This document shows positions 42,017-64,000 of a stretch of DNA of 64,000 bases, one piece after another. This DNA comes from an uncultured archaeon (GTDB taxonomy: Archaea; Altiarchaeota; Altiarchaeia; IMC4; SCGC-AAA252-I15): the NCBI GenBank assembly GCA_964423225.1, contig CAYREE010000002.1:10278-74277 (forward strand), in the 5' to 3' direction. Below the pieces are notes generated by a model, which was not told the DNA's origin, made no database searches, and worked only from the letters and a program-made list of their open reading frames with translations. Position numbers and translations under genes: made by a program. Within the stretch, counting starts at the first letter, position 1; each line of letters starts with the position of its first letter.

Positions 42017-43207
42017 TTAAAACTTTATCTCATTATCACACATGGGGATAAGTGTCCTAACCATATCCTCAGCCTCTTTCTTCTCAGTACTGAGGATGAC
42101 TCCCGCAATCTTTTCCAATCTCATCTTGTTAATAATAAAGTGTGTGAATTCTTTCACACTCTTGTCATTGTTATAGATGAGAAGACTTGATAGCGAGTCA
42201 AGGAAAAGGAATTTCTTTTCAGTATTGACTTTTGAAAGCATTCTGTCAAGATACATGCTAACTTCCTCAAGCGATCCTGGATTCTCAACAAAAACTACAT
42301 TATCAGATTTCTCTGGAGCTTTCCCTGCCATCTGTGAGATACAATCCACGAACATTATCTGGGATGCGTCAGCCCCAGATTCATTAACAGCTTCGATGAT
42401 ATAGTCATACGGTCGTGATACACTGATATAGACTCCCCCCATCCCCTTTTCCTTTACTAGTTTGGCAAGTAGTGCCGATACTACTCTAGAATGGTCTTTT
42501 GACTTGGCTGAGGCTATGATGATAGCATCGTCGCGCAGATTTGTTAATCCTTCATCCATTTTCTTAGCGATGGATTCATCTGTCGTTGCTACTTCTTCAA
42601 CGGCTGGCTGTGCAGCCATTGGCATTCCACCCGGTCCCATCACAATCTGTTTTTCCTTTTCTTTGTCATGTTCTGTTTTTATCGCCTCTATCTCTCTGAC
42701 AAGGTTTTTAACATTGGATGTCAATCTTGTTGTTATGAGTACTGGGGCTCTATTCTTGCGGGATATCTTAAAATACCCTAGTATTGATGGTATGAATTTT
42801 AACAGGTGATAGCCTCCAAGTAAGAAAGATGCTGATATACCTGCAAGGATTGCCTTGTCTATTGGTATTATGTCCGATATTTCGGGCAGGTATTTGAATA
42901 TTAGATTGTATATTGGTGTGACTAGATCATTGGATTGTTGGTAGTTATAGACTCCAAAGGCGATAGCGATCATTAGTATTCCTTTGATTAGCTCTGACCA
43001 GCGGACTCTAGTAAAATGTTCGAGAGCGTCTATCTCATCATATTGTATTCCTACAAAAGATTTTGGGAATTTTTTTATACAGACAACTCTTTCCTTGGTT
43101 GTTAGGACTGTGTATAATCCTATCTTGTATTTTGATCCTACCTGTTCATTTTCAGGTATGTAGTCATCAAACCCCTTTACTTTTAATCCAGACCCCTCCA
43201 TTTTCAA
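42017..43207 (-). CDS. Membrane-anchored degenerate KaiC/RecA-like domain protein (partner of KaiC-like ATPase)
   Basis: Central TM helices and a C-terminal RecA-like fold lacking a canonical Walker A. Overlaps the upstream KaiC-like gene by 4 nt. Confidence 0.4.
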   Translation of the reverse strand: MKMEGSGLKVKGFDDYIPENEQVGSKYKIGLYTVLTTKERVVCIKKFPKSFVGIQYDEIDALEHFTRVRWSELIKGILMIAIAFGVYNYQQSNDLVTPIYNLIFKYLPEISDIIPIDKAILAGISASFLLGGYHLLKFIPSILGYFKISRKNRAPVLITTRLTSNVKNLVREIEAIKTEHDKEKEKQIVMGPGGMPMAAQPAVEEVATTDESIAKKMDEGLTNLRDDAIIIASAKSKDHSRVVSALLAKLVKEKGMGGVYISVSRPYDYIIEAVNESGADASQIMFVDCISQMAGKAPEKSDNVVFVENPGSLEEVSMYLDRMLSKVNTEKKFLFLDSLSSLLIYNNDKSVKEFTHFIINKMRLEKIAGVILSTEKKEAEDMVRTLIPMCDNEIKF

Positions 43208-43917
43208 TCAATACCTGCTTTAAACATGGGCATCAATACTATGCCCTCATCTATTATCTGCATAACGTGTTTGTTTCTGGAATGGTTCATTCCCCTCATC
43301 TTGATTACCTGCAATGCCCTTAATAACTCTCCCTTCCTCTCGAATTCAGTTAGCATTATAACTCCGTCCGCAACGAATTCTTCCACTCCAAAAACACTGT
43401 ATTTGAATTCGTTAGGTGGTATCTCAGAAATCAATATTGTGGTTACGTCATGATACATCAGCCTAAAAGCTAGTTCGAAGACAAAATTTCTGATCTTCTC
43501 CCCTTCAATCAGGTTTTCGCATAATGCTGTGATAGAATCTATTACAAGCCTCTTAGTATTGTTGGATTTTATTATCTCTTCTATGATGCTTATTAATCCC
43601 TCTACATTATTCAAGCCGATACCTTTCAGTCTTGTATCCTGTACTAGGTCAACTACTTTAACAAGGTTTGAATCGACTAGATTCTGATCGTAGAATTTGA
43701 ATTCCTTAATGTTTTTCACAACCTTGTCTTTGGGCTCGGTTAATGCAATATATGTACCAGCCTCTCCCTGAGTAGCTCCATCAAAGATGAATTGCTGGCA
43801 TAATACGGTTTTTCCAGTACCGCAACTTCCTGCAAGTAGAACACAGTGTCCACGAGGTATGCCCCCATTCAACACATCATCTAATCCTATGATACCCGTC
43901 TTTAGCTTTTCTACCAT
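43204..43917 (-). CDS. KaiC-like RecA-superfamily ATPase
   Basis: GIIGLDDVLNGGIPRGHCVLLAGSCGTGKT and a KaiC-type single-domain architecture. Confidence 0.7.
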   Translation of the reverse strand: MVEKLKTGIIGLDDVLNGGIPRGHCVLLAGSCGTGKTVLCQQFIFDGATQGEAGTYIALTEPKDKVVKNIKEFKFYDQNLVDSNLVKVVDLVQDTRLKGIGLNNVEGLISIIEEIIKSNNTKRLVIDSITALCENLIEGEKIRNFVFELAFRLMYHDVTTILISEIPPNEFKYSVFGVEEFVADGVIMLTEFERKGELLRALQVIKMRGMNHSRNKHVMQIIDEGIVLMPMFKAGID

Positions 43918-50391: not shown

Positions 50392-51564
50392 CTATCTTCC
50401 TGATATTATCTTTATCACATCGCAGTCGGCTAGCACATGGTCTTTTCCTACCTTCTGCTTTGTGCGTGCGTCAACAGCTCCTATGAATTTTTCTCCTATG
50501 TCTGTATGAACCTTATATGCTAGGTCTAGGGCTGTCGAATCATTTGGCACTAGATATGAGTCTGGAAGCACCTTACCCTTCTTGTCTGAAAGCTTACCCT
50601 CGTTTTCAACAGGATAAACCGTTATTAGTCCAAGGACATCATATACTGCCTTATTAAGTGATTTTTGCACACCTGTCGAACCATGCTTCTCTAATATCTT
50701 AGTCTTAACGAATTCCATGGCCTTGGATTGTTTCTCAGTTAATTCTCCTTTTACTGTAAATTCCCCATCTCCTGGCACATACTCTATAAGCTCGTGAGCA
50801 TCCGCTTCACGTAATGCTAGTTCAGCTTCAGCACAGACAGGTATCATCTCATACTTTGCTTGTAGTCTATCAAAGTTATCCATTCCTAGATCTATTTTAT
50901 TTGCGGTAATTAGGATGGGTTTTGAAATCTGTCTCAAAACAATGGCGAACCTCATTATGTCTTCATCACTCCAATCCCTATTGTCTTCAAGTCTCGTCTT
51001 CTTCAATGCGTTTTTCACATGGCCTTCTGAAACCGATAATCCCGTTAAAATAGTTGTGAGCTCATCGACTAGCTTTGCATCTGCATGGACTATCTTCGAC
51101 TTGATCTTCTTCCAGTTCTTTCTGATGATTCCTGCAAACCAGTGATTCACCTCATCTTCAAGGAATTTTATATCCTCTTCTGGATCATGGTTTACACAAG
51201 CCTCTCCCAGCTCATCGGTTCTACCTGAAATATCGACTATATGGATTAATACATCTGCCTGCCTCAAGTCATCTAGAAACTGGTTTCCAAGGCCTTTTCC
51301 TTCATGTGCTCCTGGTACGAGTCCTGCAACATCTATGATCTTTATTGGTGTGAATCTGTTGCCTTTCTTGCATACGCTATTGTTTGGATTGCATTCAACA
51401 TTGAATTCGTTGCATGGGCATTTTCCACGCACATATCCAACCCCGATATTGGCTTTTATTGTCGTGAATGGAAATCCAGCAATTTCTGCGTCAGCTAGTG
51501 TTAATGCCTTGAAAAACGTTGATTTTCCAACATTTGGTTTCCCGACTACTCCTACTTCCATCAC
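50392..51564 (-). CDS. OBG-family GTPase (YchF/Ygr210-like) with C-terminal TGS domain and Cys-cluster insertion
   Basis: G1 GKPNVGKST, FPFTTI, G3 DVAGLV, NKID, and a TGS-like C-terminus. Insert CPCNEF..C..NNSVC. Confidence 0.65.
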   Translation of the reverse strand: MMEVGVVGKPNVGKSTFFKALTLADAEIAGFPFTTIKANIGVGYVRGKCPCNEFNVECNPNNSVCKKGNRFTPIKIIDVAGLVPGAHEGKGLGNQFLDDLRQADVLIHIVDISGRTDELGEACVNHDPEEDIKFLEDEVNHWFAGIIRKNWKKIKSKIVHADAKLVDELTTILTGLSVSEGHVKNALKKTRLEDNRDWSDEDIMRFAIVLRQISKPILITANKIDLGMDNFDRLQAKYEMIPVCAEAELALREADAHELIEYVPGDGEFTVKGELTEKQSKAMEFVKTKILEKHGSTGVQKSLNKAVYDVLGLITVYPVENEGKLSDKKGKVLPDSYLVPNDSTALDLAYKVHTDIGEKFIGAVDARTKQKVGKDHVLADCDVIKIISGR

Positions 51565-52652
51565 TTATTCCTCTCCCAATTATTTATAAATAATAGTAAG
51601 GCTGCTATTATGATTAACATCATTGAACCTGCTACAATAAGTGATTCGGTAGGATTTCTTGTTGGTAGGCTATTATAATAGATGAAGCCGTTTGTACTTC
51701 CAATAATGATCCTCTTATAATCTATCTTGGATGTTAGGATCCTACCCTTTGTATCCAAGTACCATCTTACCTCTCCTGTCGGGTCTGTAAGATAGAGTCT
51801 TTCATCGAGTGTTCCCGCAATCGTATGGAATCCATTAGTTGCCATTGAAGTGATTCCATCACTTAGTCTGATACTATACCTGAGTCCACCATCCCTGTGA
51901 AAGACTAAGAGTCGACCGTCTTTCAAACCTGCTAGTATTGTATTATCATGTGCTATTAATACTCCGATCTGATCATTGGTCCTATACCTCCATTTGAGGC
52001 TTCCATTATGATCGAATATAATTATGAAACCATTATTCAATCCGATGATAATGCCTTCATCATCGACAGTTGAAGTCCTGATTATATCCTCTACTCCAAA
52101 CTTTTTTATCTGTTTTCCATCCTGATCAAGTCTTATAACATCTCTGTCTGTTATAATAATTGTTTCATTCCCGATTATTGTAGCTGAGATACTATAACCT
52201 CCACTATTATACTCCCATAATGGATTACCGTTTCTATTAATACAGTAGACATTTCCAGTTGATGTGCCAATTATTATTCGATCAGCATTCATATCAACGG
52301 AGTCTGGAAATAATGACTGTTCTTCAAGATCTTTATCCCACATCATAAAACCCTCTAAGATAGAATAAATCCTACCGTCCATTGCCGATAAGATGATTCC
52401 TTCCTCATCAGCCTTTAAAGTATTGATTGTCGTGTTGATGGAGTAATTCCATAAAATACTGCCATTAAAATCTATCTTTGAGATCGTATTGTTGTATGCT
52501 ACAACAAATGCTTTATCTAGCATTTCAAGCGAAGTAACTCTAAGGCCTATAGGAATCTGCCAGTCAGGAATCTTCACTGTTTCCTGTGAATCAACAAGGC
52601 TTGTCCCAAGCGCTAGGATTATTATTATACTCGCCCATTTTTTTTGTAGCAT
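51561..52652 (-). CDS. Secreted PQQ-like beta-propeller repeat protein with C-terminal TM anchor
   Basis: Signal peptide, repeated DG-x-hydrophobic-W/Y blocks (PQQ-like repeats), and a C-terminal hydrophobic helix. Confidence 0.5.
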   Translation of the reverse strand: MLQKKWASIIIILALGTSLVDSQETVKIPDWQIPIGLRVTSLEMLDKAFVVAYNNTISKIDFNGSILWNYSINTTINTLKADEEGIILSAMDGRIYSILEGFMMWDKDLEEQSLFPDSVDMNADRIIIGTSTGNVYCINRNGNPLWEYNSGGYSISATIIGNETIIITDRDVIRLDQDGKQIKKFGVEDIIRTSTVDDEGIIIGLNNGFIIIFDHNGSLKWRYRTNDQIGVLIAHDNTILAGLKDGRLLVFHRDGGLRYSIRLSDGITSMATNGFHTIAGTLDERLYLTDPTGEVRWYLDTKGRILTSKIDYKRIIIGSTNGFIYYNSLPTRNPTESLIVAGSMMLIIIAALLLFINNWERNK

Positions 52653-52979: not shown

Positions 52980-53438
52980 CTATCCGCATATTCCTTCAAT
53001 CTTCTTAGTTCCCGTGAACTCGATTCCGGTAATAGCATTATCCCGGTCATCAAACACGAAAGCAACTTCTAGGGCATATGGCTGGTCTGCAACACATGCT
53101 GAACCAAGGTCGCGTTTTACTGTCTCGGTCTTACCTACTAATAATACTAGGTTTGCCGCCTCTGTTACCACTACTCCTGGATTACCAACAGTCATACTCG
53201 AGATAACAATCGTGTAGTCCTGATTGTTTCGTATCGTGAAATACGATACACCGCTTTCAACAACTTTCCAGTTCAAAATCCCCATTTCTGCTCCTCTCCA
53301 ATAGGATTTTGAGGCCTGGATTCCGGCTCCGGCTCCTATGTCTATAAATCCTCCTAATACCGTCACCACTATTAGCGCGACAATCACTACTACTGCGAGT
53401 ATCACGAGATACTCTGTGGATAATTGTCCTTTATCCAT
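52980..53438 (-). CDS. Archaeal type IV pilin-like protein with class III signal peptide (major pilin candidate 1)
   Basis: MDKGQLSTEYLVILAVVVIVALIVVTVLGG: KG-Q cleavage site followed by a hydrophobic helix. Strong SD TAGGAGGTGT upstream. 83% identical N-terminus to the paralog. Confidence 0.75.
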   Translation of the reverse strand: MDKGQLSTEYLVILAVVVIVALIVVTVLGGFIDIGAGAGIQASKSYWRGAEMGILNWKVVESGVSYFTIRNNQDYTIVISSMTVGNPGVVVTEAANLVLLVGKTETVKRDLGSACVADQPYALEVAFVFDDRDNAITGIEFTGTKKIEGICG

Positions 53439-53487
53439 GAAACACCTCCTATAGATTTATTCTATATTTTTATTATATGATTGTGTT

Positions 53488-53512
53488 AAAAAAAGAGGGG
53501 TTATTCCTGTTT
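53488..53512 (-). terminator. T-tract terminator after pilin paralog 2 (AACCCCTCTTTTTTT)
   Basis: Same CCCCTC-T7 motif as downstream of paralog 1, immediately 3' of the stop codon. Confidence 0.45.
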
Positions 53513-53983
53513 TTAGCAGGTTCCCTCTATTTTCTTAACGCCGTCAAACTTTAGGTCTGCGATAGTGTGGTCTACATCCGTGTATATCACACTAACGGCT
53601 GCTGCATATGGCGATCCTGCACTTCCTGCCGCACATGTGCTGATGTCCTGATTCACTGTCCTGCTTTGTCCTGGATTAAGTGTCAGAGATACCATTCCTC
53701 CACCTCCTCCTATCACTGTGACTCCATCCACTGTGAACGAAGTAATCTGGATTGTGTAATCCAGGTTGTTTCTCACCGTGAAGTAGGAACTACTGCCTGC
53801 TAATGCTACCTTCCAATTTAATAGTCCGATGTCTGCTCCTCTCCAGTAGGACTTTGATGCTTGCACACCTGCTCCTGCACCGATGTCTATGAATCCTCCG
53901 AGGACTGTCACGACTATTAAGGCTACTATGACAACGACTGCAAGGATGACCAAATATTCCGTTGATAATTGTCCTTTATCCAT
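53513..53983 (-). CDS. Archaeal type IV pilin-like protein with class III signal peptide (major pilin candidate 2)
   Basis: Identical first ~50 aa (MDKGQLSTEYLVILAVVVIVALIVVTVLGGFIDIGAGAG). SD GGAGGTGA sits 5 nt upstream. Confidence 0.75.
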   Translation of the reverse strand: MDKGQLSTEYLVILAVVVIVALIVVTVLGGFIDIGAGAGVQASKSYWRGADIGLLNWKVALAGSSSYFTVRNNLDYTIQITSFTVDGVTVIGGGGGMVSLTLNPGQSRTVNQDISTCAAGSAGSPYAAAVSVIYTDVDHTIADLKFDGVKKIEGTC

Positions 53984-54039: not shown

Positions 54040-54996
54040 TTACTGTATTTTTATGTAATATCTGATAGCGTAAAATACTATCAGTGTGATTGGCACTATT
54101 ATGATAGCGTACTTCAGCCCGTATTTTTCTTTTCCCTTGTTTATAACTCCGATAAGCAGGCTTGCGATAAATGATGTGCCGACTATTATTAATGTGGATA
54201 CGTTCATGAGGAATTCTATGCTGAATGTTTCTGCCATGAATAAACCGATCCCCATATTATTCACATCTGATATATTGAAATTGCTTTTCAACTCATTCAT
54301 CCTCTCTGTGAAGTGTATGGACACGTTCATCAATACTGGCATTCCAACGACTATGGTTAGTAGGATGAGTATAGTGTATGTCCTTGTGCTTGATATGAGT
54401 TGTCTTCTAAGCATCAGGTTCTCATTGATGTCTCTCGCGGTTTCTTCTAGTATCTTGGCTAAGTAGCCGCCGGATTCGATGCTTCTTATGAATAGTTTTA
54501 TTGATCTTTCAAGTACTGGAAGTCTTATATTCTGGTTTATCTCCATGAGTGCACTGGAAAAAGATTCTGTCCCCAAGGCTTTTGTAGTTGCTTTATCAAG
54601 CTCTTCTTTTAATACACCAAATTCCTCTCTTGCTGATATCTTCATTGCCTGATATGGGGTCATACCTGCCCTGACATTGGATGCCATTAGTTGTAGAACG
54701 CTTGGAAGCACTTCTTCAACGGCTTCCCCCCTCTTTTCGGCTATGAAAAATGGTATTGAGTATGCTCCAACCAGATAGACTATGAACATCACGAATGCTA
54801 ATACGTGAAATAGCAGTGGTTCTCCGTATCTTCCTATATACTCGGTGACAAGTGCTACTAATACAGAGTATAACAGGCTTTTACCCAACCAGACTTCTGC
54901 CTCCACATTCATGCCTGCAAATTTGATCATGTCAGCCATATTCTCTACCATTGTTCTGGGGTAGAGCCTTGATAATGCTATGTAGAATCGTCTCAT
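54040..54996 (-). CDS. Pilus/T2SS platform protein, T2SS-F domain (TadC-like)
   Basis: T2SSF domain (LQLMASNVRAGMTPYQAM...LERSIKLFIRSIESGGYLAKILEE) plus TM helices. The start is set at the Met 2 nt after the upstream stop; the track's longer basic N-terminus is out-of-frame overlap. Confidence 0.65.
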   Translation of the reverse strand: MRRFYIALSRLYPRTMVENMADMIKFAGMNVEAEVWLGKSLLYSVLVALVTEYIGRYGEPLLFHVLAFVMFIVYLVGAYSIPFFIAEKRGEAVEEVLPSVLQLMASNVRAGMTPYQAMKISAREEFGVLKEELDKATTKALGTESFSSALMEINQNIRLPVLERSIKLFIRSIESGGYLAKILEETARDINENLMLRRQLISSTRTYTILILLTIVVGMPVLMNVSIHFTERMNELKSNFNISDVNNMGIGLFMAETFSIEFLMNVSTLIIVGTSFIASLLIGVINKGKEKYGLKYAIIIVPITLIVFYAIRYYIKIQ

Positions 54997-54998
54997 CG

Positions 54999-55883
54999 TT
55001 AAACGTATACTACCGGCCTCCTGCTTTTTATGAATTCCATTAGTGCTATTTGTACGAAAAAGCATACTGGGATCATTATGTAGAATATTTTTGGGCCTAG
55101 TTCGACTCCGAGGAATGGTCCTAGGACTATTATTAGTGTTGTTGCGATTGTTGGCATGACTACTGCGAAGAGCATGTATATTAGTACCATTACATTGAGT
55201 TCTTGGGCATAGTTTCTGATCTTCATTTTTTGTTCCATTGTCAGGTCTTTTACGAGTTCTCTTAGTATGCCTTCTAGGCTTGATCCTGATTTTAATGCGT
55301 TTATTATCTGCCATACGCTGTTTTTAAGGTGTTCGCTTCTTGTGTGTATGGCTAGTTCTTCTAGTGCGTCTTCTACTGGTACTCCAACATTGGCTTTTTT
55401 CACGACTTTTGCTATCTCATGGGATATGCTGCCGTATCCTGAGTGGGCTACTTCTGTTAGGGCTGTGTATGCTGATGCTCCTGAACTGACTTCTAATAGC
55501 ATGTCTTTTAGTGCGAAAACAAGGTCTCTGTCGATTTGTTCTGCTTTTTTTCCGGCTAGGATTCCGGGGTATGATAATAGTACGAATAGGAATAATCCTA
55601 GGATCAGTGTGAATACCATTAGGGTCATGGAAATTACTTTTTGTTGTTCTGTGCCTACCGCTGTCATTAGCGTGTATATTAGTCCGCCAACAAGTAGTGC
55701 GGTGAATAATGCGGATAGTATTGAGGCTCCTACATAGTCTTCAGCACCTACATCAAGGTCGGTTTCCATCAAGTCTATCCTAAGCTTAGGATATACTGCC
55801 ATGAGCTTGTGCCATAGGTTATTCCATTTACTTGTTAACCGTATCCCCACTCTTAGGGGTATCAACATTAGTGGTACTTCCAT
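54999..55883 (-). CDS. Pilus/T2SS platform protein, T2SS-F domain (TadB-like)
   Basis: T2SSF domain (LKDMLLEVSSGASAYTALTEVA...ALEELAIHTRSEHLKNSVWQIINALKSGSSL) plus TM helices. Confidence 0.65.
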   Translation of the reverse strand: MEVPLMLIPLRVGIRLTSKWNNLWHKLMAVYPKLRIDLMETDLDVGAEDYVGASILSALFTALLVGGLIYTLMTAVGTEQQKVISMTLMVFTLILGLFLFVLLSYPGILAGKKAEQIDRDLVFALKDMLLEVSSGASAYTALTEVAHSGYGSISHEIAKVVKKANVGVPVEDALEELAIHTRSEHLKNSVWQIINALKSGSSLEGILRELVKDLTMEQKMKIRNYAQELNVMVLIYMLFAVVMPTIATTLIIVLGPFLGVELGPKIFYIMIPVCFFVQIALMEFIKSRRPVVYV

Positions 55884-55890
55884 CGGTATT

Positions 55891-58800
55891 CTATTCCTTC
55901 TTTTTCTTTCCTAGACCCAACATGGACTTTATTGTCGGGCTCATCCTTTTTGCGAATAATTTGTTTAATGCTGAGTCTTTTTTCTCTTCTGGTTTTAATG
56001 GGATTTCAGTGTCTGAGACTGGTTTATCTTCTTTAGAGTCTTCGGCACTGGTTTTTTCCTCTTCTATCGCGTGTTCTAATATTTCCTCGGGTTTTATCGT
56101 GTCCTCGTCCGCTATTGCGAATGGAGAAGGCTGTAAATCAGGTTTTTTCTCTTCTTCTTGGATTGTTATCTGTGGATCTTCTGGTTCTTCTGGCATAGTA
56201 TCAAACAATGATTTTGCTCTCGTTGACATGGGATCATCTTGAAATGGTTCTTCTTTCTCCTCGGGTATTTCAGGTTCTGGTTTTATTATCTGGTCTGTTT
56301 GCTCTTCTACTTCATCTTGTCCTATCATTGCCTTCATTGTCGGACTCATTTTATCATCGAATATTTTGTCTAATTTTGTTTTGTCTTGTAGTTTTGTATC
56401 TTCTTCAACAGGCTCTTGGATTTCTTTTTTAGTTTCTTCTTGTATTGATTTTTCAGTTGTTGGTTCGGGTTTTTTCACTGGTTCTTTTTCCTGTTCACTT
56501 GAACCCATCATCGCCTTCATGGTTGGACTCATCTTTTCTGCGAATGGATCGTCAAATCGAGGGTCTTTCGGGCCATCGAAGACTTTTTTATATGGTTCAA
56601 CTTCTTCTTTTGATGTTTCTGGTTCTTGAGTCTCTGTGACCTCAAGTTTTTTGTCTGGAATCTCTTGGACTATCTGTGATTCTGGTTCTAATGCTTCTGG
56701 TCCGGTTTGTTCAGGAGTAGTTTGTGTTTCTTCTGTGATTGATGATCCTGGATCGATTTCTTCTGCTGCCAGGGGTTGTGGTTCGGTCACATCTTGTGGG
56801 AGTAATTCGGGTTTTTGTTCTATATCTGCTGTTTGTTTATCTAGTTCCTCTATTTTTTCTTCTTCTAACGGTGTTTTTTCCTCGGTTTGTTGTGCTATTT
56901 TTGGAGGTTCAATAATTCGATGTTTCTTTGGGTCTCTTTCCTTGATTTCTTCGATGGTTATTTTACCTTCTATCACTTCCTTTAGTTGTTCCTTGTTCTT
57001 GTAGTATAATTCCATGACTTCGCCGACTTCTTCAAGACTTCGATTATTGTTTTCATACATCCAGATCAATGTCTTCTTCTTTTCCTCTAAGTCTTTTAGG
57101 ATTTCCGGCCGACTCATTCCTGTATGTAGTGATAAATCCTCTAATACTCGGACGCTATCATTTACTTTTACGAACTCGTCAGTCCTTGTATTGTATCTGA
57201 ATAGATAATTTAGTTCGAATTCTTTGCCCTCGCTTCCAGGGCGTATCTCAGCTATCTCGAATACTTTTCGGGCACCTTTTTTCCGGTCCCTGTATACGAC
57301 TATCATCAAGTGCAGTGCCTCTATCTCAGCGCTTGGTAATGCTATTGGGGGTTCTAAAAGCCTTCTTTTAAGATTATGGACCGTATCTGCGTGAATTGTA
57401 CCATAGACACTGTGTCCTGTATGCATTGCCTCGAATAATACCTCGGCTTCACGCCGTCTTCTTATCTCTCCTAAGACTATCCTATCTGGCCTCATCCTTA
57501 GGGATGTCACTATCAGGTCGAGCATGCTTACTTCTCCCTTGCCTTCTGGATTAGCTTCTCTTGTCGTTAATGGGACCCAGTTCCATTTTAGGTAGCTTGG
57601 AAGATTGATTTCTCGAGTGTCTTCAATGGTTATGACTCTGTGTGTGGGTTGTATTAGTGAGCATAGGCAGTTTAACATGCTTGTTTTTCCTGATGCTGTT
57701 CCGCCTCCAACGATTACGTTTAGTTCGTATTGGAATGCTAGCCAGAGGAATGCGCCCATTTCTGGGGACATTGTGCAGATGTCTGGGCTTACGAAGTGTG
57801 CTATCGTCCATGGTTGTCTTGCGAATTTTCTGATAGTGATTGTGTTTCCAAAGTTTGATATCGGGAATAATGTCGCGTTTACCCTGTCTCCTGAGAGTAG
57901 GTGTGCGTCCATTATTGGATCCATGTTTGTTATATCTCTCTCGACTTTTCTACCTATCTGTGCAGCGTAATTGTATACCATCCGTTCATCGTCTAGGTGT
58001 AGTGTGGTCTCGACCCATCCGAATCTTTTATGGTATGCTGTAAGGGGGATGTGGCTGGTATTGATGCATACTTCTTCAAGCCAATCATCAGTCATTAGTA
58101 GTTCCATGTCTCCGAGACCGTACATTGAATGGGTCATCATTCCGGCAAGCATGTTCAAGTCGTCTTCATCTAATCTGATTTCTGAGTCTATGAGGTCTTT
58201 TGCTTCGGTGAAGAACGTTTCTTTTAACTCCCTCATCTTTTTTGTATCGGACATGTCTCCTACCCCAACTTCTATCTTTCCGCTTAACGCGTCTCTGAGC
58301 GATGTAATTAGGCTTCTTGTTCCAACTCCTATTATGGGCAGTGTCACCTCGTATATTGGTTTTGCCTTCTGGTCGCTTGCTATGATCTTGACGTGTGCTA
58401 CGACCTTGTCTGCAACGATCTTATAGCTGTCGAGGGTTTTACCCGTTATGTTAGTATCTGGGTCGTCTAGGGATACGGGTTTTGCAAGTGTCATCATAGG
58501 TTCTTTTAATAAATTGGATGGGTAGTCGAGTTTGAGTATATCTAGTGTTCTCGCCCATTTTTCGATCTTTTTAGGCTCTGTATTAGAAACGATCGCTGCG
58601 TCTGCGAGAGAGAGGTATTTACTCCTTGATAATGCTTCGATTAGGTAGTCTACTTGGGTGAATATTATCCTTTTTTCTCTGCTTTTTTCCGATATCTTCT
58701 CCTTTATTCTTTGACGCAGTATCCTTGGCTTGTTCCCTATTATGACTCCTTTTTTATTGATTTTTAGAAGTTCTTCTCTTTCGAGGATATGAGACCATTC

Positions 58801-59151
58801 TTCTATTTGTGTTGAAGTAGTCTCGAGTTTTTCAGCCGCCTCAAACACACTGATGCTTCCTTCTTGTTCCATTAGTTCAAGGAGATTTTCCTTGTTTATA
58901 CCAAACAAGCATCTTGATATGAGTTTATCTGTTGCAGAAATCTTTGGTGGACGAAGGAATCTCTTCACAACTTTTATCTGTCCTTGGTCTTCCAGTTTTT
59001 TAATGGTTTTTTTAAAATCTCTTTTACTTGCTTTAAATCTTTTTGCAGTCCTTTTAGCTTTGACAGTCCCCCTTGCCCTGATATGTCGGATCAGGGCCTG
59101 TGATAGTATGCCCCTTTCTCTTATCAACCCTGCTTTGTCCTTCAAGCCCAT
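55891..59151 (-). CDS. Type II/IV secretion-system ATPase (VirB11/TadA/FlaI family) with long N-terminal region and about 420-aa acidic repeat-bearing C-terminal tail
   Basis: Walker A GGGTASGKTS, ITIEDTREI, Walker B/Asp box RMRPDRIVLGEIR, His box HTGHSVYGTIHA. The tail is E/K/P-rich with MSPTMKAM repeats. Confidence 0.8.
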   Translation of the reverse strand: MGLKDKAGLIRERGILSQALIRHIRARGTVKAKRTAKRFKASKRDFKKTIKKLEDQGQIKVVKRFLRPPKISATDKLISRCLFGINKENLLELMEQEGSISVFEAAEKLETTSTQIEEWSHILEREELLKINKKGVIIGNKPRILRQRIKEKISEKSREKRIIFTQVDYLIEALSRSKYLSLADAAIVSNTEPKKIEKWARTLDILKLDYPSNLLKEPMMTLAKPVSLDDPDTNITGKTLDSYKIVADKVVAHVKIIASDQKAKPIYEVTLPIIGVGTRSLITSLRDALSGKIEVGVGDMSDTKKMRELKETFFTEAKDLIDSEIRLDEDDLNMLAGMMTHSMYGLGDMELLMTDDWLEEVCINTSHIPLTAYHKRFGWVETTLHLDDERMVYNYAAQIGRKVERDITNMDPIMDAHLLSGDRVNATLFPISNFGNTITIRKFARQPWTIAHFVSPDICTMSPEMGAFLWLAFQYELNVIVGGGTASGKTSMLNCLCSLIQPTHRVITIEDTREINLPSYLKWNWVPLTTREANPEGKGEVSMLDLIVTSLRMRPDRIVLGEIRRRREAEVLFEAMHTGHSVYGTIHADTVHNLKRRLLEPPIALPSAEIEALHLMIVVYRDRKKGARKVFEIAEIRPGSEGKEFELNYLFRYNTRTDEFVKVNDSVRVLEDLSLHTGMSRPEILKDLEEKKKTLIWMYENNNRSLEEVGEVMELYYKNKEQLKEVIEGKITIEEIKERDPKKHRIIEPPKIAQQTEEKTPLEEEKIEELDKQTADIEQKPELLPQDVTEPQPLAAEEIDPGSSITEETQTTPEQTGPEALEPESQIVQEIPDKKLEVTETQEPETSKEEVEPYKKVFDGPKDPRFDDPFAEKMSPTMKAMMGSSEQEKEPVKKPEPTTEKSIQEETKKEIQEPVEEDTKLQDKTKLDKIFDDKMSPTMKAMIGQDEVEEQTDQIIKPEPEIPEEKEEPFQDDPMSTRAKSLFDTMPEEPEDPQITIQEEEKKPDLQPSPFAIADEDTIKPEEILEHAIEEEKTSAEDSKEDKPVSDTEIPLKPEEKKDSALNKLFAKRMSPTIKSMLGLGKKKKE
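55918..56544 (-). repeat. Four in-frame copies (one degenerate) of a motif of about 14 aa, [FL]-x-[DEK]-[KR]-MSPT-[MI]-K-[AS]-M-[MIL]-G, in the ATPase tail
   Basis: DNA repeats ...ccttcat.gt.gg.ctcat... at about 55918-55965, 56321-56365 and 56503-56544, with a degenerate copy (DPMSTRAKSLFDTM) at about 56180-56247. Confidence 0.7.
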
Positions 59152-59152
59152 T

Positions 59153-59359
59153 TTACTTGATCTTATATGATTTTAATAATTTCACATATAGATTGTAGTC
59201 CTTCGATTTTGCGAATTTTTCAATATCCTCATCGTCTAGTTTCCCTAGTAAGTTGTCAAGGACTTTTAAAATTCTCCTAACCTCCCCTTTGCTAAGTGTT
59301 TCTCCGGTACTTTCCCTCGGAATCAATGCGTCGAGTCCTTTTACCTTTTCTTCGACCAT
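59153..59359 (-). CDS. Small hypothetical protein (68 aa) between ParA-like and ATPase genes
   Basis: Tightly packed ORF (0-1 nt spacers on both sides), charged and helical. Confidence 0.4.
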   Translation of the reverse strand: MVEEKVKGLDALIPRESTGETLSKGEVRRILKVLDNLLGKLDDEDIEKFAKSKDYNLYVKLLKSYKIK

Positions 59360-60316
59360 TTATATCAACTTATCTGCTATCTTCATGTATGCTGTACTAG
59401 CCTGAGCGTCTGGGTAAAGATCTATTATTGGTTTACCTTGTGCAGATGCTTCACTCACCTTAATATCTCTGTCTATCATGATGTCAAATACTGTTTCTTT
59501 TAGATAGTTCTTTACCTCAGCCATTATCTTGTTTGAAAACTCTGAGTTGGGTTCATGCATTGTTAGTATTGCCCCATCGATATGTAGTCCTGGATTAAGT
59601 CTGTCTCTCACAAGTTCGATAACCTTCATGAATGTTGTGAGGCTTTCAACAGCGAATTGGTCTGACTGGACTGGTATTAGGACAGAATCAGCTGCTGTAA
59701 GAGCATTGATTGTAAGTAGGCTAAGTGATGGTGGGCAATCAATTATTATAAAATCATATTTTTCTCTTAAGGGCGTTAACACATCGTTTAAACGATTTTC
59801 CCTCCCTTTTAAACCCATTAATTCCACTTCCATTCCGACAAGATTTACTTCAGATGGAACGAAATCAAAGTCGAAGTCTGTTGTTACAATGCTTTCTTCG
59901 ATCGGGGCTGTTAATGAGAGTATGTCATATGTATTGCATTTCACTTCTTCTGTATGTCCTAGTAGGCTTGATGCATTGGCTTGTGGATCAAGGTCAACAA
60001 GAAGAACTTTTTTATCCAGTTTTGCCAGGCAGGATGATATATTAATTGAAGTAGTTGTCTTTCCCACTCCGCCCTTATGGTTGGAGACACTGATTATCTT
60101 GCAGTTGCCTGGTTTTTCAGGAAGCTTACCTGTTTTTGATATACGATAGTCTACAAAAAGTGGTTTTCTAACCTTTAAGTATCCTTCTTTCTGGAGTTCT
60201 TTACAGTGTTTTATCAGTGTTTTCTTGTCTAATTCAAGTTCTTTTACGAGGATGTGAGCTTTAACTTCTCCAGTGTTCGGAATCTCCCTGAGGATCATTA
60301 ATTGTAATGGGTCCAC
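59360..60316 (-). CDS. ParA/MinD-family ATPase with N-terminal winged-helix domain (TadZ/CpaE-like position in pilus operon)
   Basis: Deviant Walker A KGGVGKTT and DLDPQAN. About 75-aa N-terminal wHTH-like region. GTG start (or ATG at Met7). Confidence 0.7.
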   Translation of the reverse strand: MDPLQLMILREIPNTGEVKAHILVKELELDKKTLIKHCKELQKEGYLKVRKPLFVDYRISKTGKLPEKPGNCKIISVSNHKGGVGKTTTSINISSCLAKLDKKVLLVDLDPQANASSLLGHTEEVKCNTYDILSLTAPIEESIVTTDFDFDFVPSEVNLVGMEVELMGLKGRENRLNDVLTPLREKYDFIIIDCPPSLSLLTINALTAADSVLIPVQSDQFAVESLTTFMKVIELVRDRLNPGLHIDGAILTMHEPNSEFSNKIMAEVKNYLKETVFDIMIDRDIKVSEASAQGKPIIDLYPDAQASTAYMKIADKLI

Positions 60317-60376
60317 TTTTTAAAAAGTTACTATTATACTAATTACTCCTAAGAGTTTATATAATATAATTTTTTT
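60317..60376 (-). promoter_or_regulatory. Candidate promoter for pilus assembly operon (TATA-like AGTATAATAG about 25 nt upstream of start; likely leaderless)
   Basis: AT-rich 60-nt spacer with TTATATTATATAAA and GTATAAT elements, no SD, and the start codon within about 25 nt of the TATA-like element. Confidence 0.35.
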
Positions 60377-61360
60377 TTATTGGCAGCAGCAGGTATCGGC
60401 CTGCGGCCCGCCCTTACAATATACATCTCCCTCAGTTTCGTGTGTGCCACCCCCTGGGCAAACACTGTTTTGCTTACAACTACCCCCAGCATAGCCTTTT
60501 ATTCCACAGACTTTTTCACATTCTCCTAAATCTATTTGTGGTGTTAGCCATATAGCATCTTTTCTATATATATTATCCTTGAATTCCACGCTAATATTGC
60601 TTCTAATACCTACGATTGGGATGTCTTCCATGATAATTCTTGTTTCAACCTCTCCTATTGTATTTCCCTGTTTGGATAGGACAATTGAGTAGTCATGGTT
60701 ACTTCCATCTATACTGTTTCTGCCCACGTTGATAAAAACCTTTCCAGTCGTGAAATTCAATGTCAATTGAGAGTTACCTGAAGGATTGACGAAGTATGTG
60801 TCTTCAAAACCCATATTAGAGAACGAGCCATTCAATAGGATGCGCTTACTGCCTCCCTGTGTCTCATCCACGACATTTACTAGGTTCATATCATAGTCGA
60901 AATATAGTTCATATGCATAGATTTCAGAATCCCCGGTCTTATTATATATTCTGATATAATCCTTGTTGTATGAGTTATAACCATATATCAATGGTGTTGG
61001 TTCTAGTGTAAATTCAGGATTATTCAGGCCAGATAATATTATTTCTGAATACACCCTGCTAGAATACTGGTTCTCAATGAAGTTCTTATATTCATTTAAC
61101 TGGGTTATTCCCCCAGCCAGCGGAAACCCATCTTTTACTGAGACTACAGTACGTCCTGAATCATAATACACCCTTGCATTTATCCCTAGTATATCTTCAA
61201 GATCAGTTGCAATGTCGGCAAATACTGTCCTAGTCTTCTCTGAGTATATATCCTCCTTCACTCCGACTTTGACATAATATGTTGCCAGTGAAAAAACACT
61301 TAATACTAGCATTAGACAAAGAATTGAGAAGAGCAGGCCTCTATTATTCATCTTAACCAC
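60377..61360 (-). CDS. Pilin-like or secreted protein with class III-type signal (NNRG-LLFS) and Cys-rich C-terminus
   Basis: N-terminal RG followed by a hydrophobic helix. The C-terminal 60 aa hold 11 Cys (CEKVCGIKGYAGGSCKQNSVCPGGG...CCCQ). Confidence 0.5.
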   Translation of the reverse strand: MVKMNNRGLLFSILCLMLVLSVFSLATYYVKVGVKEDIYSEKTRTVFADIATDLEDILGINARVYYDSGRTVVSVKDGFPLAGGITQLNEYKNFIENQYSSRVYSEIILSGLNNPEFTLEPTPLIYGYNSYNKDYIRIYNKTGDSEIYAYELYFDYDMNLVNVVDETQGGSKRILLNGSFSNMGFEDTYFVNPSGNSQLTLNFTTGKVFINVGRNSIDGSNHDYSIVLSKQGNTIGEVETRIIMEDIPIVGIRSNISVEFKDNIYRKDAIWLTPQIDLGECEKVCGIKGYAGGSCKQNSVCPGGGTHETEGDVYCKGGPQADTCCCQ

Positions 61361-61728
61361 ACTCTTGCCTCTGATATATATCTTTCACTGTCTTTTATGA
61401 ATGAGCGTCTTGATATAGCGTATTCGCCCTCCTCACATCCACTGTCTTCAATAAATATTACAATGTCGTTTGAGTCTATGATCTTGATTTCAAGACATAT
61501 CTTTTGTGGTAGCGTTGCTTTTAGCTCATAGAGTTTCGTTGTATCGCCGACAGTAAGCCGTTCAAGCCCTGCATTCTCGTCTAATATTGCTAGTAAGTCG
61601 GTGGATAACTGATAAACATATTCTCTGCTAGGGTATTTTGGAGCGGAAAAAAGGAATATGCTCGCACTTATTATTACTGTTGCCATTGCCAGGGCTACTA
61701 ACGCATCCAAAGTGAATATTCCTGTCAT
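61348..61728 (-). CDS. Minor pilin-like protein (class III signal-like N-terminus)
   Basis: MTGIFTLDALVALAMATVIISASIFLF. Confidence 0.45.
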   Translation of the reverse strand: MTGIFTLDALVALAMATVIISASIFLFSAPKYPSREYVYQLSTDLLAILDENAGLERLTVGDTTKLYELKATLPQKICLEIKIIDSNDIVIFIEDSGCEEGEYAISRRSFIKDSERYISEARVWLR

Positions 61729-61739
61729 ATCATTTCTCC

Positions 61740-62261
61740 TTAAGTTGTCATAAATGAGTCTTCTGGAAAGTATACTCTAACTCCTACCTCGACTATAGTA
61801 TCGTTTAATAATCCATATCTGTTCATGATGACCATTGGCCTGTTTGTTGGTTCTCCGATCTCGTATAATACGGGTAGTGATGAGTTTTGTATGTCTGTCA
61901 CGGTTATATGAACATCCTCTTTAGTGAGTCCGAGAATCTTTGTAAGGTTTTCATATGTTATTTCCCCTGCCTTCTCAAGCTTTGATGCGTCTAGTATGTT
62001 ATCCCTTTTTGCAAATCCTATCGTGCTAACATATCTTGCATCTATACTGTCTAGTGTCTGCCATTCCGCAGGCATTCCCGGTGTTTTGATGAGTAGTTCA
62101 GAGACTTCTAGGGCTTTTCTGTCGAGTGATCTTTTGTCATTGAATTTGAATATCTTTGTTAGGCCTAGCGTCCATACTTCCATTGTTGTAAGTAGTATGA
62201 GTAGTACTAGTGTGAATGCGACTGTCAGGTCTATGGTGGATATCTGGCCTTTTTTAGACAT
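61740..62261 (-). CDS. Minor pilin-like protein (class III signal peptide KKG-QIS)
   Basis: MSKKGQISTIDLTVAFTLVLLILLTTM, the canonical archaeal prepilin N-terminus. Confidence 0.55.
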   Translation of the reverse strand: MSKKGQISTIDLTVAFTLVLLILLTTMEVWTLGLTKIFKFNDKRSLDRKALEVSELLIKTPGMPAEWQTLDSIDARYVSTIGFAKRDNILDASKLEKAGEITYENLTKILGLTKEDVHITVTDIQNSSLPVLYEIGEPTNRPMVIMNRYGLLNDTIVEVGVRVYFPEDSFMTT

Positions 62262-62664
62262 TTTCCACCCATAACTTGTTTTCTTTGAATGTGATTATGA
62301 CTTTTCCGGGGTTCACGTCTATATAGCTTCCTCCCTCGATTTGTGCTGGTAGGATCCCTGTGGCTTGTATCTTCTGGGTACCGCTATATGCTAGGTAAAT
62401 GGATTTGGGATAGACTCTTAGTGTGAATGATCGCCCTCCTTCAAATGACTCGGGTATATAGATCGTCCTGTTTGATCCTTCTCCTGCTAGATATACTGAG
62501 TTTATTGCTATTGCAAGGTTTTCTATGAGTACTTTAGAATCTACTCTGTTGACTACTTCTGTCCGCATCCTTTCTTGGGCTGTTATAGTATTTATCAATA
62601 GGATGAATAGTGATAGCGCGACTCCGATAGCAATCAAAAAGTCTATCGCAACCTGTGACTTCAT
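62254..62664 (-). CDS. Minor pilin-like protein (class III signal-like KS-QVAIDF)
   Basis: MKSQVAIDFLIAIGVALSLFILL. Confidence 0.5.
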   Translation of the reverse strand: MKSQVAIDFLIAIGVALSLFILLINTITAQERMRTEVVNRVDSKVLIENLAIAINSVYLAGEGSNRTIYIPESFEGGRSFTLRVYPKSIYLAYSGTQKIQATGILPAQIEGGSYIDVNPGKVIITFKENKLWVENV

Positions 62665-62699
62665 ATGTTAAATATACTCGGCTATATATAGAAATATGA

Positions 62700-63302
62700 C
62701 TACTCTGTGATGCATCCTGACCCGCCTATTGTGAATGATCTTCCAGTAATCCGCACGGTCTTTGTTTTCACTTCGTTGGTTGGTTCTCCTGTTCTACTTG
62801 GTTCTTTTCCTGGTACTACTCCTATTGGATTTTCTTTTATCTTGACTTTTTTTACGACGTATCCGTTAGGGTAGTATTCTTTCAAGTATTCTTCTGGCTT
62901 CTTCATTGTGCAGTAGGAGTTTTCCAGTGGTTCTATACCGCATTCTCGGATTCCTTCCACCATCTTCAAGTCTGCTGGGGCTGCGTTATTGAATGCATTT
63001 ATTATATGGTAGGCGTGTATCCCGTCCTTGGAGTAGACGAAGGCGTCTGATGTGGGTGAGAATAATATGATTTTCTCTCCACTGTCTACTACGGCGTATG
63101 GATCCCTTCCTATTAATTCTTCGAGTGTAACCATTGGATCGGTTTTTATCACTCCACGTGGCTGTGGGTAAGTGTCTTGGTAATCTGGTTCAGTTTGTGC
63201 TGATCCAGGCATCCTTATGTATCCTGTTACTACACCCAGGATTAGGATAATGATTATGCCTAATATCATCCATTTCCCGTCTTCTTCTATATCCAGGTCC
63301 AT
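62700..63302 (-). CDS. N-terminally anchored extracellular protein (200 aa) in pilus locus
   Basis: Single N-terminal TM (WMILGIIIILILGVVTGYI) followed by a soluble domain. Confidence 0.4.
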   Translation of the reverse strand: MDLDIEEDGKWMILGIIIILILGVVTGYIRMPGSAQTEPDYQDTYPQPRGVIKTDPMVTLEELIGRDPYAVVDSGEKIILFSPTSDAFVYSKDGIHAYHIINAFNNAAPADLKMVEGIRECGIEPLENSYCTMKKPEEYLKEYYPNGYVVKKVKIKENPIGVVPGKEPSRTGEPTNEVKTKTVRITGRSFTIGGSGCITE

Positions 63303-64000
63303 TTAATTGTATCTTACCCTCACTTGTATGTCTGTCATCGTCCATTGGTCTGATGATATCCCTGTTTCATCGCAGTCCGTGGTTTCAAGCGATACTTTCA
63401 AGTTGTGTGCGCCTGGATTCAGCTTATTGCCTGAACTTGTTATCGGGACGATGATGGGGTTGCCTGTATTGGTTGTCTCATCCATTATAAGCTCGTTGTC
63501 CCACCAGATGCAGTGGTGTTCTCCGTCAATCCAGTCATTGGGATTGAAGTGGAGTTCTCCTAGGAATGGTGTTCCAGTATATGTTAAGTCTACTTGGACG
63601 GTCTTCGGATTCTCAAAACATGTTCCCGATCCACCTAATTCAAGCTCAAGGTATGGTTCGCAAGTACCTGTTCCACATGGATTTGCACAGGTTCCACCCA
63701 TTCCATAATACTCGGTCCAGGGATTTAGAGCGCTATTCAGGTCTTGTCCTGTCCAGGACGCGTAGAAGCTGCCGGTGGTTGGTACTTGATTAGGATCTGT
63801 TATGTCTATGCACTGCCATACATCTATGCTGTTGCTGGTCCGGGTTGCCTCTCCTATCTGCCCTCCAGGAAAGCTTGATACGCCTGCCCATCCGCAGGTT
63901 AGGCTTGATTCTTTATATATCCTGGATGTATGACTTGCTCCAAATGAGTCGACGTTTTGTATTCGTCCGCATATTTTTGCCGAGGCTATATTGTTTCCTG
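63303..64000 (-). CDS. C-terminal part of a larger secreted Cys-containing protein (frame open to window end)
   Basis: Hand translation upstream of the listed Met shows no stop through 64000 (...SNSIDVWQCIDITDPNQVPTTGSFYASWTGQDLNSALNPWTEYYGMGGTCANPCGTGTCEPY...). Confidence 0.45.
   Translation of the reverse strand, partial: GNNIASAKICGRIQNVDSFGASHTSRIYKESSLTCGWAGVSSFPGGQIGEATRTSNSIDVWQCIDITDPNQVPTTGSFYASWTGQDLNSALNPWTEYYGMGGTCANPCGTGTCEPYLELELGGSGTCFENPKTVQVDLTYTGTPFLGELHFNPNDWIDGEHHCIWWDNELIMDETTNTGNPIIVPITSSGNKLNPGAHNLKVSLETTDCDETGISSDQWTMTDIQVRVRYN

Follow-up and report, generated by a model that had tools for sequence, protein, structure and literature searches.

A Soj-type ParA with a winged helix and a candidate ParB-peptide adaptor in an archaeal type IV pilus cluster

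ParA/MinD ATPases are general spatial organisers of prokaryotic cells, and the matching of each of them to its cargo is an active question. A 64,000-nucleotide stretch of DNA from an uncultured archaeon of the Altiarchaeota (GenBank assembly GCA_964423225.1, contig CAYREE010000002.1, positions 10,278 to 74,277; hereafter the window) raises this question for a pilus. A ParA-type ATPase with an N-terminal winged helix is encoded there directly ahead of a 68-residue open reading frame (ORF) and a type IV pilus assembly ATPase. What kind of ParA is this, and what is its small neighbour? The partner logic can be read from the 68-residue protein, which has a canonical ParB activating peptide at one end and, at the other, a module that is membrane-anchored beside the same pilus ATPase in sister loci. 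We favour, by a modest measure, the reading that an Epd/Tad-like archaeal type IV pilus cluster has taken in a Soj-type ParA together with the activator/adaptor that belongs to it, the pilus motor being the cargo. Domain identities, the conservation of motifs and of a binding pocket, synteny and patterns of co-occurrence are observed here. The three genes at issue are as follows.

60316..59360, minus strand: ParA with winged helix, 318 residues (Pfam, NCBIfam, PDB sequence and fold matches, AlphaFold2 model)
59359..59153, minus strand: 68-residue ORF, candidate adaptor (precomputed Pfam label PF27359, ParB-type motif, AlphaFold2 model)
59151..55891, minus strand: type IV pilus assembly ATPase of the ArlI/TadA/VirB11 class, 1086 residues (Pfam T2SSE, E=3e-29; NCBIfam FlaI/TadA-type)

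ParA/MinD ATPases have already been reported at archaeal pilus loci, so the system is not categorically new. FleN/MinD-family ATPases (arCOG00589, arCOG05608) are described at clade-1/Epd-like and other archaeal type IV pilus loci in parts of Makarova et al. (2016; PMC4858521), and passages of Denise et al. (2019; PMC6668835) link them to TadZ. Sections of a 2026 preprint (bioRxiv 10.64898/2026.04.22.720090) restate the MinD-like link and place two-platform systems in methanogens, Thermococcales and DPANN; a term search of this preprint found no occurrence of 'ParA', 'winged' or 'HTH'. What appears to be new here is the Soj type of the ATPase, its fusion to a winged helix, the ParB-peptide adaptor and the pairing of a module labelled TP_0179 with neighbours that begin Met-Gly-Leu (MGL), none of which is mentioned in the relevant passages of PMC4858521 and PMC6668835.

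The ParA ATPase and its winged helix

The ParA gene begins with a GTG at 60316, where the homologue alignments also begin; the database version of the protein starts from an ATG at 60298 and has 312 residues. An initial annotation, made from the letters of the sequence, had placed the protein in the 'ParA/MinD/TadZ class' on the strength of its deviant Walker A motif. Membership of the ParA/MinD superfamily is borne out by this motif (NHKGGVGKTT) and by the Pfam matches (AAA_31, E=8e-61; CbiA, E=6e-24), while the TadZ part of the placement gives way to a Soj type. In sequence comparisons with the PDB, ParA of Myxococcus xanthus (8ray) scores 210 bits and the Soj proteins of Thermus thermophilus (1wcv) and Helicobacter pylori (6iub) score 160 and 158 bits, against 86 bits for MinD and about 40 bits for FleN/FlhG. 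The Walker A, A' and B segments NHKGGVGKTT, LLVDLDPQ and IIIDCPPS are invariant in the ParA alignments. The AlphaFold2 (AF2) model has a predicted local distance difference test score (pLDDT) of 89, and its best Foldseek matches in the PDB are 8ray, 2bek and 6iub, with TM-scores to target of 0.89–0.93. By sequence and predicted fold, the ATPase domain is of the Soj/chromosomal-ParA type, not of the TadZ, MinD or FleN type. Thousands of bacterial Soj/ParA proteins share 45–50% identity with it over the C-terminal 77% only, and its closest full-length relatives, at 54–67% identity, come from metagenome-assembled genomes (MAGs) of Candidatus Altiarchaeota.

The protein reaches no curated NCBIfam equivalog cut-off (NF041546, 112.6 against a cut-off of 180). 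MinD identity was rejected on the score of the MinD-type model TIGR01969 (126 against 201.75), on the PDB scores given above and on the C-terminus: beyond the last core helix (...AYMKIADKLI) there is no further segment such as the amphipathic membrane-targeting helix of MinD-type proteins. TadZ identity was likewise rejected, the N-terminal domain being a winged helix and the matches listed holding no TadZ; the TadZ/CpaE family is not among the best 25 of 33 NCBIfam matches, and no TadZ entry was recognised among the best 60 of 67 PDB sequence matches (E<=1e-3). TadZ/CpaE and the FleN/MinD-family proteins (arCOG00589, arCOG05608) do resemble the window protein as ParA/MinD-superfamily ATPases that have an extra N-terminal domain and are encoded beside a pilus ATPase and two TadC-like platform proteins. 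However, TadZ/CpaE has a receiver-like domain (atypical receiver domain, ARD) in place of the winged helix, the window sequence is much closer to Soj than to TadZ, MinD or FleN, and a dedicated ParB-peptide adaptor such as that considered below is described for neither TadZ nor arCOG00589.

The residues that bind the ParB peptide and DNA in M. xanthus ParA were taken from PMC12462528 and mapped onto the window protein. All six hydrophobic residues of the ParB-peptide pocket are kept: V116, L150, L152, L155, L187 and L192 correspond to V158, L192, L194, I197, L229 and L234. The DNA-binding R238 is replaced by K280.

The N-terminal ~60 residues are a winged helix, as judged from the model and from sequence profiles, in agreement with the initial annotation, which had preferred a winged helix to a TadZ-like receiver and proposed a profile search of this region. 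AF2 predicts helices at residues 2–5, 14–21 and 25–37 and strands at 41–44 and 52–55 (pLDDT 81–93), and the profile search against the PDB returned winged helices of Lrp, ArsR and MarR proteins. Matches to HTH_24, MarR and TrmB are weak, and consistent in four to five of six homologues; a Foldseek search with the full ParA model returned only ParA-type matches. A counterpart of the domain lies two genes downstream. In BLASTP the ParA winged helix shares 34% identity over 62 residues (E=1e-6) with the first winged helix of the pilus ATPase, and hhalign gives a probability of 96.8% (E=3e-10) for the same pair; by sequence, the two domains are paralogues. This paralogy makes a protein–protein role at least as likely as DNA binding.

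DNA binding is at the centre of one rival explanation, a transcriptional checkpoint of the FleN-like or type-Ia-ParA-like kind. The winged helix would bind at promoters or operators of pilus genes, with the AT-rich gap 60317–60376 as one candidate site, and the adaptor, bound to pilus ATPase that is either free or assembled, would set the nucleotide state of ParA and through it adjust expression or the number of pili. The weak matches to MarR, TrmB, Lrp and ArsR regulators are in its favour, as is the position of ParA directly after the only sizeable intergenic gap in the cluster, and portions of PMC4858521 describe FleN/MinD-type ATPases as archaeal pilus regulators. The architecture also resembles that of type Ia ParAs (P1 ParA, F SopA and Vibrio cholerae ParA2), in which an N-terminal winged helix precedes the ParA ATPase domain; Foldseek aligns both domains over ~360 columns to 3ez2 and 7npe. 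The sequence similarity to type Ia proteins is, however, very weak (SopA model, 58.7 bits, cut-off 725), and neither a ParB nor a centromere was found in the flanks that were scanned. Against the checkpoint, the helix–turn–helix (HTH) matches of the window protein itself are all below curated cut-offs, no operator-like repeats were seen between 52.5 and 64 kb, and winged helices of the same type occur as the first N-terminal domain of the pilus ATPase and on a membrane-anchored protein in a locus that has no ParA (L013, described below). These last two placements argue for a structural role in the machine, and we regard the checkpoint as unlikely.

The 68-residue protein as a candidate ParB-peptide adaptor

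The 68-residue ORF is as tightly coupled to ParA as the initial annotation had stated: the ParA stop abuts its start (TAA ATG), and its own stop lies 1 nt ahead of the ATG of the pilus ATPase. The two reading frames are in register with a single TAA between them (59357–59362), and a readthrough fusion was considered and rejected; in L001 the genes overlap in a different frame and in L002–L004 they overlap also, so conserved readthrough is unlikely. The product is predicted to be helical, again as first described, with a short helix at residues 8–12 and further helices at 24–38, 43–50 and 53–64 (AF2, pLDDT 86.7). It can be divided into a ParB-type peptide (K7-G-L-D-A-L-I-P14), a linker and a three-helix module (~24–64). 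The ORF, for which the initial annotation recognised no equivalent, does have equivalents. A single-sequence word-indexed search returned the ORF itself and one fragment only; the family surfaced solely by a profile search and by exhaustive phmmer, the latter of which linked the C-terminal module to 144 cluster representatives.

In nine small homologues G8, L9, L12, I13 and P14 of the peptide are invariant, and several of these read VLG[RK]GL[DN]ALIP. The peptide is EKVKGLDALIP in the window, RVLGRGLDALIP in L007 and KVLGKGLNALIP in L008, and the ParB proteins encoded beside two of the closest bacterial Soj relatives have the N-termini KKALGKGLSALIP and KKSVLGRGLGALIP; the form VLGRGLDALIP in relatives of the ORF may be compared with VLGRGLGALIP in a genuine ParB. 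The ParB motif consists of L11, a central R/K13, L15, L18 and I19, and a 20-mer ParB peptide is enough to bind and activate ParA together with DNA (PMC12462528). No ribbon–helix–helix (RHH), HTH or ParB/Srx domain was found in the 68-residue protein by Pfam, NCBIfam, the AF2 model or a fold search. Pfam and NCBIfam scans gave no match (with a Pfam copy that does not hold the PF27359 model), and Foldseek of the model against the PDB gave none at E<=0.001 (best E=2.9). The motif match, taken with the absence of a ParB/Srx, HTH or dimerisation domain, indicates a ParB-type peptide without the folded domains of ParB. From these sequence features, a partnership between ParA and the 68-residue protein appears probable.

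The pair shares with the ParABS systems of M. xanthus, T. thermophilus and H. pylori the fold and sequence of the ATPase (43–50% identity), the deviant Walker A motif, the pocket, the basic DNA-binding position and a partner bearing a [KR]-G-L-x-A-L-I-P motif. It differs in that the partner has neither a ParB/Srx CTPase nor an HTH or dimerisation domain, that no parS is evident, that ParA carries an extra winged helix and that the genes lie within an archaeal pilus cluster. Could the pair nevertheless be a genuine DNA partition cassette, a ParA with a small centromere-binding protein that lies among pilus genes by chance? A Soj-type ATPase beside a small protein with a ParB-type peptide is what such a cassette would present. 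Yet the small protein has none of the DNA-binding domains listed above, its C-terminal module is common to membrane-anchored pilus accessory proteins, and distant lineages keep the pair within the pilus cluster, its genes overlapping or abutting. Nor does the window show the surroundings of a parAB system, which the initial annotation had named among the findings that would refute its reading. From ~7 kb downstream of ParA to 4 kb upstream, where the window ends, there is no ParB-domain gene, and a search for centromere- or operator-like repeats from 52.5 to 64 kb gave only short chance matches and a repeat between pilin paralogues. The parAB cassette was rejected as an identity for want of a nearby ParB-domain gene and of repeat arrays, and we consider a partition function extremely improbable.

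The peptide bears equally on a second rival, a static assembly hub like TadZ/CpaE or FlaH. Here an ATP-bound ParA dimer would scaffold the recruitment of the pilus ATPase to the platform through contacts made by the winged helix and the adaptor, with no part for the nucleoid or for a patterning cycle. According to parts of PMC6668835, bacterial Tad loci derive from archaeal Epd-like systems and have in TadZ such a hub of the ParA/MinD family, and portions of that paper and of PMC4858521 note that archaeal type IV pilus loci often have ParA/MinD ATPases; homologous winged helices on both ParA and the pilus ATPase would also suit a hub. However, the window protein is a Soj-type ATPase with intact catalytic motifs, a ParB pocket and a basic residue at the DNA-binding position, TadZ was not recognised among the PDB matches considered above, and the partner carries what by its sequence is an ATPase-activating peptide. 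Such a peptide implies turnover and not a static hub, and we judge the hub to be quite unlikely.

The TP_0179 module, the pilus ATPase and the proposed mechanism

The C-terminal 45 residues of the 68-residue protein (consensus LDxLLGKLPDExIExFAKSKDYxLYxKLL) carry, like those of its orthologues, the precomputed database label PF27359 (TP_0179). Across its family the module usually stands at the extreme C-terminus, behind transmembrane anchors, zinc ribbons or coiled coils, or in tandem copies; a ParB-type peptide is attached only in the small subgroup to which the 68-residue protein belongs. In ~40 loci, the gene directly after the module gene begins MGL[LRK]xKA, and it does so in all ParA-type loci where the downstream gene is on the contig. 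The N-termini of these neighbours include the following.

Window: pilus ATPase, N-terminus MGLKDKAGLIRERG with MGLKDKA peptide
L002: pilus ATPase after the module gene, MGLREKA
L007: ORF with winged-helix repeats at the contig end, MGLRDKA
L015: pilus ATPase after the module gene, MGLKKKA
L013: separate membrane-anchored winged-helix protein ahead of the ATPase, MGLLDKL
Five Thermoplasmata-type loci: giant coiled-coil proteins, MGLR[DE]KA[RK]K

In a prospective test on further loci, the MGL start fitted in four of four; two of these genes encode ATPases (one T2SSE, one KaiC-like), one a coiled-coil protein and one an unknown protein. A metagenome scan found it in the next gene in 24 of 26 loci, many of them near-duplicates of one lineage, so that the effective sample is perhaps 20 lineages. 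The pattern occurs 43 times among 2,740 candidate ATG starts in all fetched DNA, which amounts to roughly one occurrence per locus; the window has a single one, at the pilus ATPase. The distance from the module gene to the MGL gene ranges from an overlap to ~60 nt, with ~380 nt in L025; this variable spacing places the signal at the protein level.

The order in which pilin-like genes are followed by ParA with its winged helix, the small ORF, the T2SSE ATPase, two T2SSF genes and class-III pilins recurs in four other Altiarchaeota contigs (L001, L002/L009, L003 and L015), with partial order in L004–L007 and L025. The trio of ParA, small ORF and ATPase, whose conservation the initial annotation had proposed to check, is thus kept, across ParA proteins 41–67% identical to that of the window. 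Loci with and without an upstream ParA differ in both the module protein and the ATPase.

With upstream ParA (window, L001–L004, L007, L015, L025): TP_0179 protein of 60–112 residues with ParB-type peptide; ATPase with the first winged helix
Without ParA (L013, L017, L026–L031, L043, L044): TP_0179 protein of 117–391 residues, no ParB-type peptide

In the five ParA-less loci that were read in this respect (L013, L026, L027, L030/L031), the TP_0179 protein has a hydrophobic N-terminal segment. The ATPases of ParA-less loci do not have the first winged helix and align only from residue ~150–345 of the window ATPase, with 33–53% identity in the core; a hidden Markov model of the ParA winged helix found nothing in these loci. 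A split system occurs in L013 (6500–9021, from a Methanosarcinales MAG), which has no ParA. Its first gene encodes a 208-residue protein composed of a transmembrane segment, a coiled coil and a TP_0179 module, its second a 129-residue protein that begins MGLLDKL and has a winged helix as well as a transmembrane helix at the C-terminus, and its third a 503-residue pilus ATPase without the winged-helix extension.

The window ATPase consists of the MGLKDKA peptide, tandem winged-helix-like repeats (~16–230), the T2SSE core and a 350-residue C-terminal tail rich in Glu, Lys and Pro. It is longer, at 1086 residues, than its Altiarchaeota orthologues (730–788), and its tail (55891–56950, minus strand) contains three copies of a motif (KMSPTMKAMMG, KMSPTMKAMIG and RMSPTIKSMLG). 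Multiple winged-helix repeats on a secretion-type ATPase could be taken to mean that the proteins handle DNA, as VirC1 does: the winged helices would bind DNA, the pilus would serve DNA uptake or transfer, and ParA would bring DNA to the motor. Faint VirC1 matches in Pfam point the same way, but they are restricted to the P-loop; the winged-helix matches are weak and generic, and no relaxase, nuclease, ComEC-like channel or other DNA-processing gene was found in the cluster. A VirC1-like role is accordingly very improbable in our estimation.

We return to the recruitment of a Soj-type ParA by the pilus cluster. In the mechanism that we propose, ParA would dimerise with ATP and probably bind the nucleoid, since a basic residue is kept at the non-specific DNA-binding position. 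The adaptor would activate and tether ParA through its ParB-type peptide, and its three-helix TP_0179 module would dock on the MGLKDKA N-terminus of the pilus ATPase encoded by the next gene, so that the pilus motor would become the cargo of ParA. This docking, suggested by the co-occurrence of module and peptide, is on balance slightly favoured. ParA could then distribute, position or gate the assembly of pilus machines, as other ParA/MinD ATPases do with protein cargos; that the function is one of positioning, and not of regulation or scaffolding, is put forward tentatively. The ParA winged helix would probably make a second, machine-specific contact, or alternatively bind DNA. A similar logic operates in McdA/McdB of carboxysomes, PomZ/PomXY and ParC/ParP of chemoreceptor arrays, where a ParA-type ATPase adjoins a small partner whose N-terminal peptide activates the ATPase and whose remainder binds a protein cargo; the proposed cargo here differs in being a pilus motor, and the partner in having a canonical ParB motif and a TP_0179 module.

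Several points weigh against this proposal. The first Leu-Gly of the ParB motif (ParB L11) is absent from the window copy, and the Altiarchaeota peptides do not have the L11 hydrophobic residue; Asp takes the place of the central basic residue in one homologue (P0123), and the L015 peptide is divergent (KGVKAFLG). Guilt by association is all that joins the MGL peptide to the TP_0179 module, and a membrane-binding helix is an alternative reading of this peptide. That an archaeal Soj-like ParA binds the nucleoid is assumed, and the winged helix could, by analogy with type Ia ParAs, be a real DNA-binding autoregulatory domain. Every physical interaction and cellular outcome in the mechanism is read from sequence and gene order.

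Should the proposal hold, a ParB-peptide adaptor would for the first time be seen to serve a secretion or pilus machine, and archaea might have in it a counterpart to TadZ-based positioning, with a bearing on the origin of TadZ-type regulation in bacterial Tad pili. It would also illustrate the possible re-use of DNA-segregation parts for protein machines, and it offers a testable route to how archaeal Epd/Tad-like pili are positioned or gated.

The TP_0179/MGL-start pairing itself spans several dozen loci with pilus motors, KaiC-like ATPases and giant coiled-coil proteins. The module and the MGL[LR]xKA peptide may form a general docking pair, undescribed before and here mainly archaeal, of which the Altiarchaeota version makes the pilus motor a ParA cargo; we offer this as a possibility, with some reserve. 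In such a pair, an anchor protein would capture the N-terminus of the product of the next gene. The anchors would be transmembrane helices, zinc-ribbon coiled coils or, here, a ParB-type peptide plugging into ParA, and the captured proteins would be type IV pilus ATPases, a KaiC-like ATPase or giant coiled-coil proteins.

Two further kinds of locus were seen. In L020 (4001–5345), a membrane-anchored TP_0179 protein precedes a KaiC/FlaH-like ATPase starting MGLLEKLEKRE, which extends the pairing to KaiC-like ATPases. In Thermoplasmata-type MAGs and many metagenome contigs (L010, L011, L012, L014, L016, L018, L032–L049), one protein combines a zinc ribbon and a coiled coil with a TP_0179 module, and after it comes a giant coiled-coil protein of 736 to >1800 residues that starts MGLRDKA[RK]K and has no other recognisable domain; Pfam gave only RNase_Y_N matches on the Thermoplasmata proteins, which we read as matches to coiled-coil composition. 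These two proteins may be an uncharacterised cytoskeletal or membrane-tether pair.

The gene row and its surroundings

The three genes belong to one tight minus-strand row that extends from ~63.7 to ~53.0 kb of the window. Its other members are as follows.

63701..63303, minus strand: Cys-rich ORF, first of the six upstream genes, no hydrophobic N-terminus
63302..60377, minus strand: five pilin-like genes, putative minor pilins (class-III-signal-like hydrophobic N-termini in ORF translations)
55883..54999, minus strand: TadC-like platform protein 1 (Pfam T2SSF, E=1e-16)
~55041..54040, minus strand: TadC-like platform protein 2 (Pfam T2SSF, E=8e-19)
53983..52980, minus strand: two paralogous class-III-signal pilin genes (Pfam Class_IIIsignal, E=2e-4 and 6.5e-4, below curated cut-off)

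The initial annotation had ParA at the head of the pilus operon. With five pilin-like genes and a Cys-rich ORF upstream on the same strand, and an AT-rich gap of 60 nt between these and ParA, the gene heads the motor/platform block and not the whole cluster. A T2SSE ATPase, two separate TadC-like platform genes and several class-III-signal pilins make this an archaeal clade-1/Epd-like type IV pilus system, as such systems are characterised in parts of PMC4858521 and of bioRxiv 10.64898/2026.04.22.720090. Platform protein 1 is 62–74% identical across the Altiarchaeota loci. For platform protein 2, homologue alignments place the likely start at ~55041, against 55314 in the longest ORF. The downstream pilin paralogues contain a 212-nt direct repeat of 75% identity, and the pair is kept in L001, L002 and L015. 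No prepilin peptidase (EppA) was seen among the genes scanned at 50–64 kb.

The 327-residue pilin-like protein encoded nearest to ParA (60377..61360, minus strand) ends in a Cys-rich knot (60377–60520; CEKVCGIKGYAGGSCKQNSVCPGG...CKGGPQADTCCCQ) with a weak arthropod-defensin match in Pfam (Defensin_2, E=3e-4). The knot, which looks like a defensin-like tip domain, is conserved in the L015 orthologue (L015 4731–6008), where a long Thr/Ser-rich linker precedes it. Immediately beyond the downstream end of the cluster, a beta-propeller (PQQ_2-like) protein is encoded in the window (51561–52652), L001, L002 and L015; it is followed by an Obg-like GTPase gene in the window (50392–51564), L001 and L015, the L002 contig stopping earlier.

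The neighbouring genes are those of an ordinary archaeal chromosome: besides the Obg-like GTPase they encode PdxS/PdxT, a Hel308-type helicase, archaeosine tRNA-guanine transglycosylase, HMG-CoA reductase and seryl-tRNA synthetase. A tRNA scan of the window found no tRNA genes, and Pfam gave no match at E<=1e-5 for a 1817-residue ORF (30772–36225, minus strand). Two adjoining minus-strand genes for KaiC-like ATPases lie ~10 kb from the pilus cluster, one with a clear KaiC domain (43204..43917) and one of the DUF7504/KaiC-like kind (42017..43207); archaeal type IV pili are often accompanied by KaiC-like ATPases, according to parts of PMC4858521. An intein that bears a LAGLIDADG homing-endonuclease domain interrupts the Hel308-type helicase, which is of archaeal type (1661–5266, minus strand).

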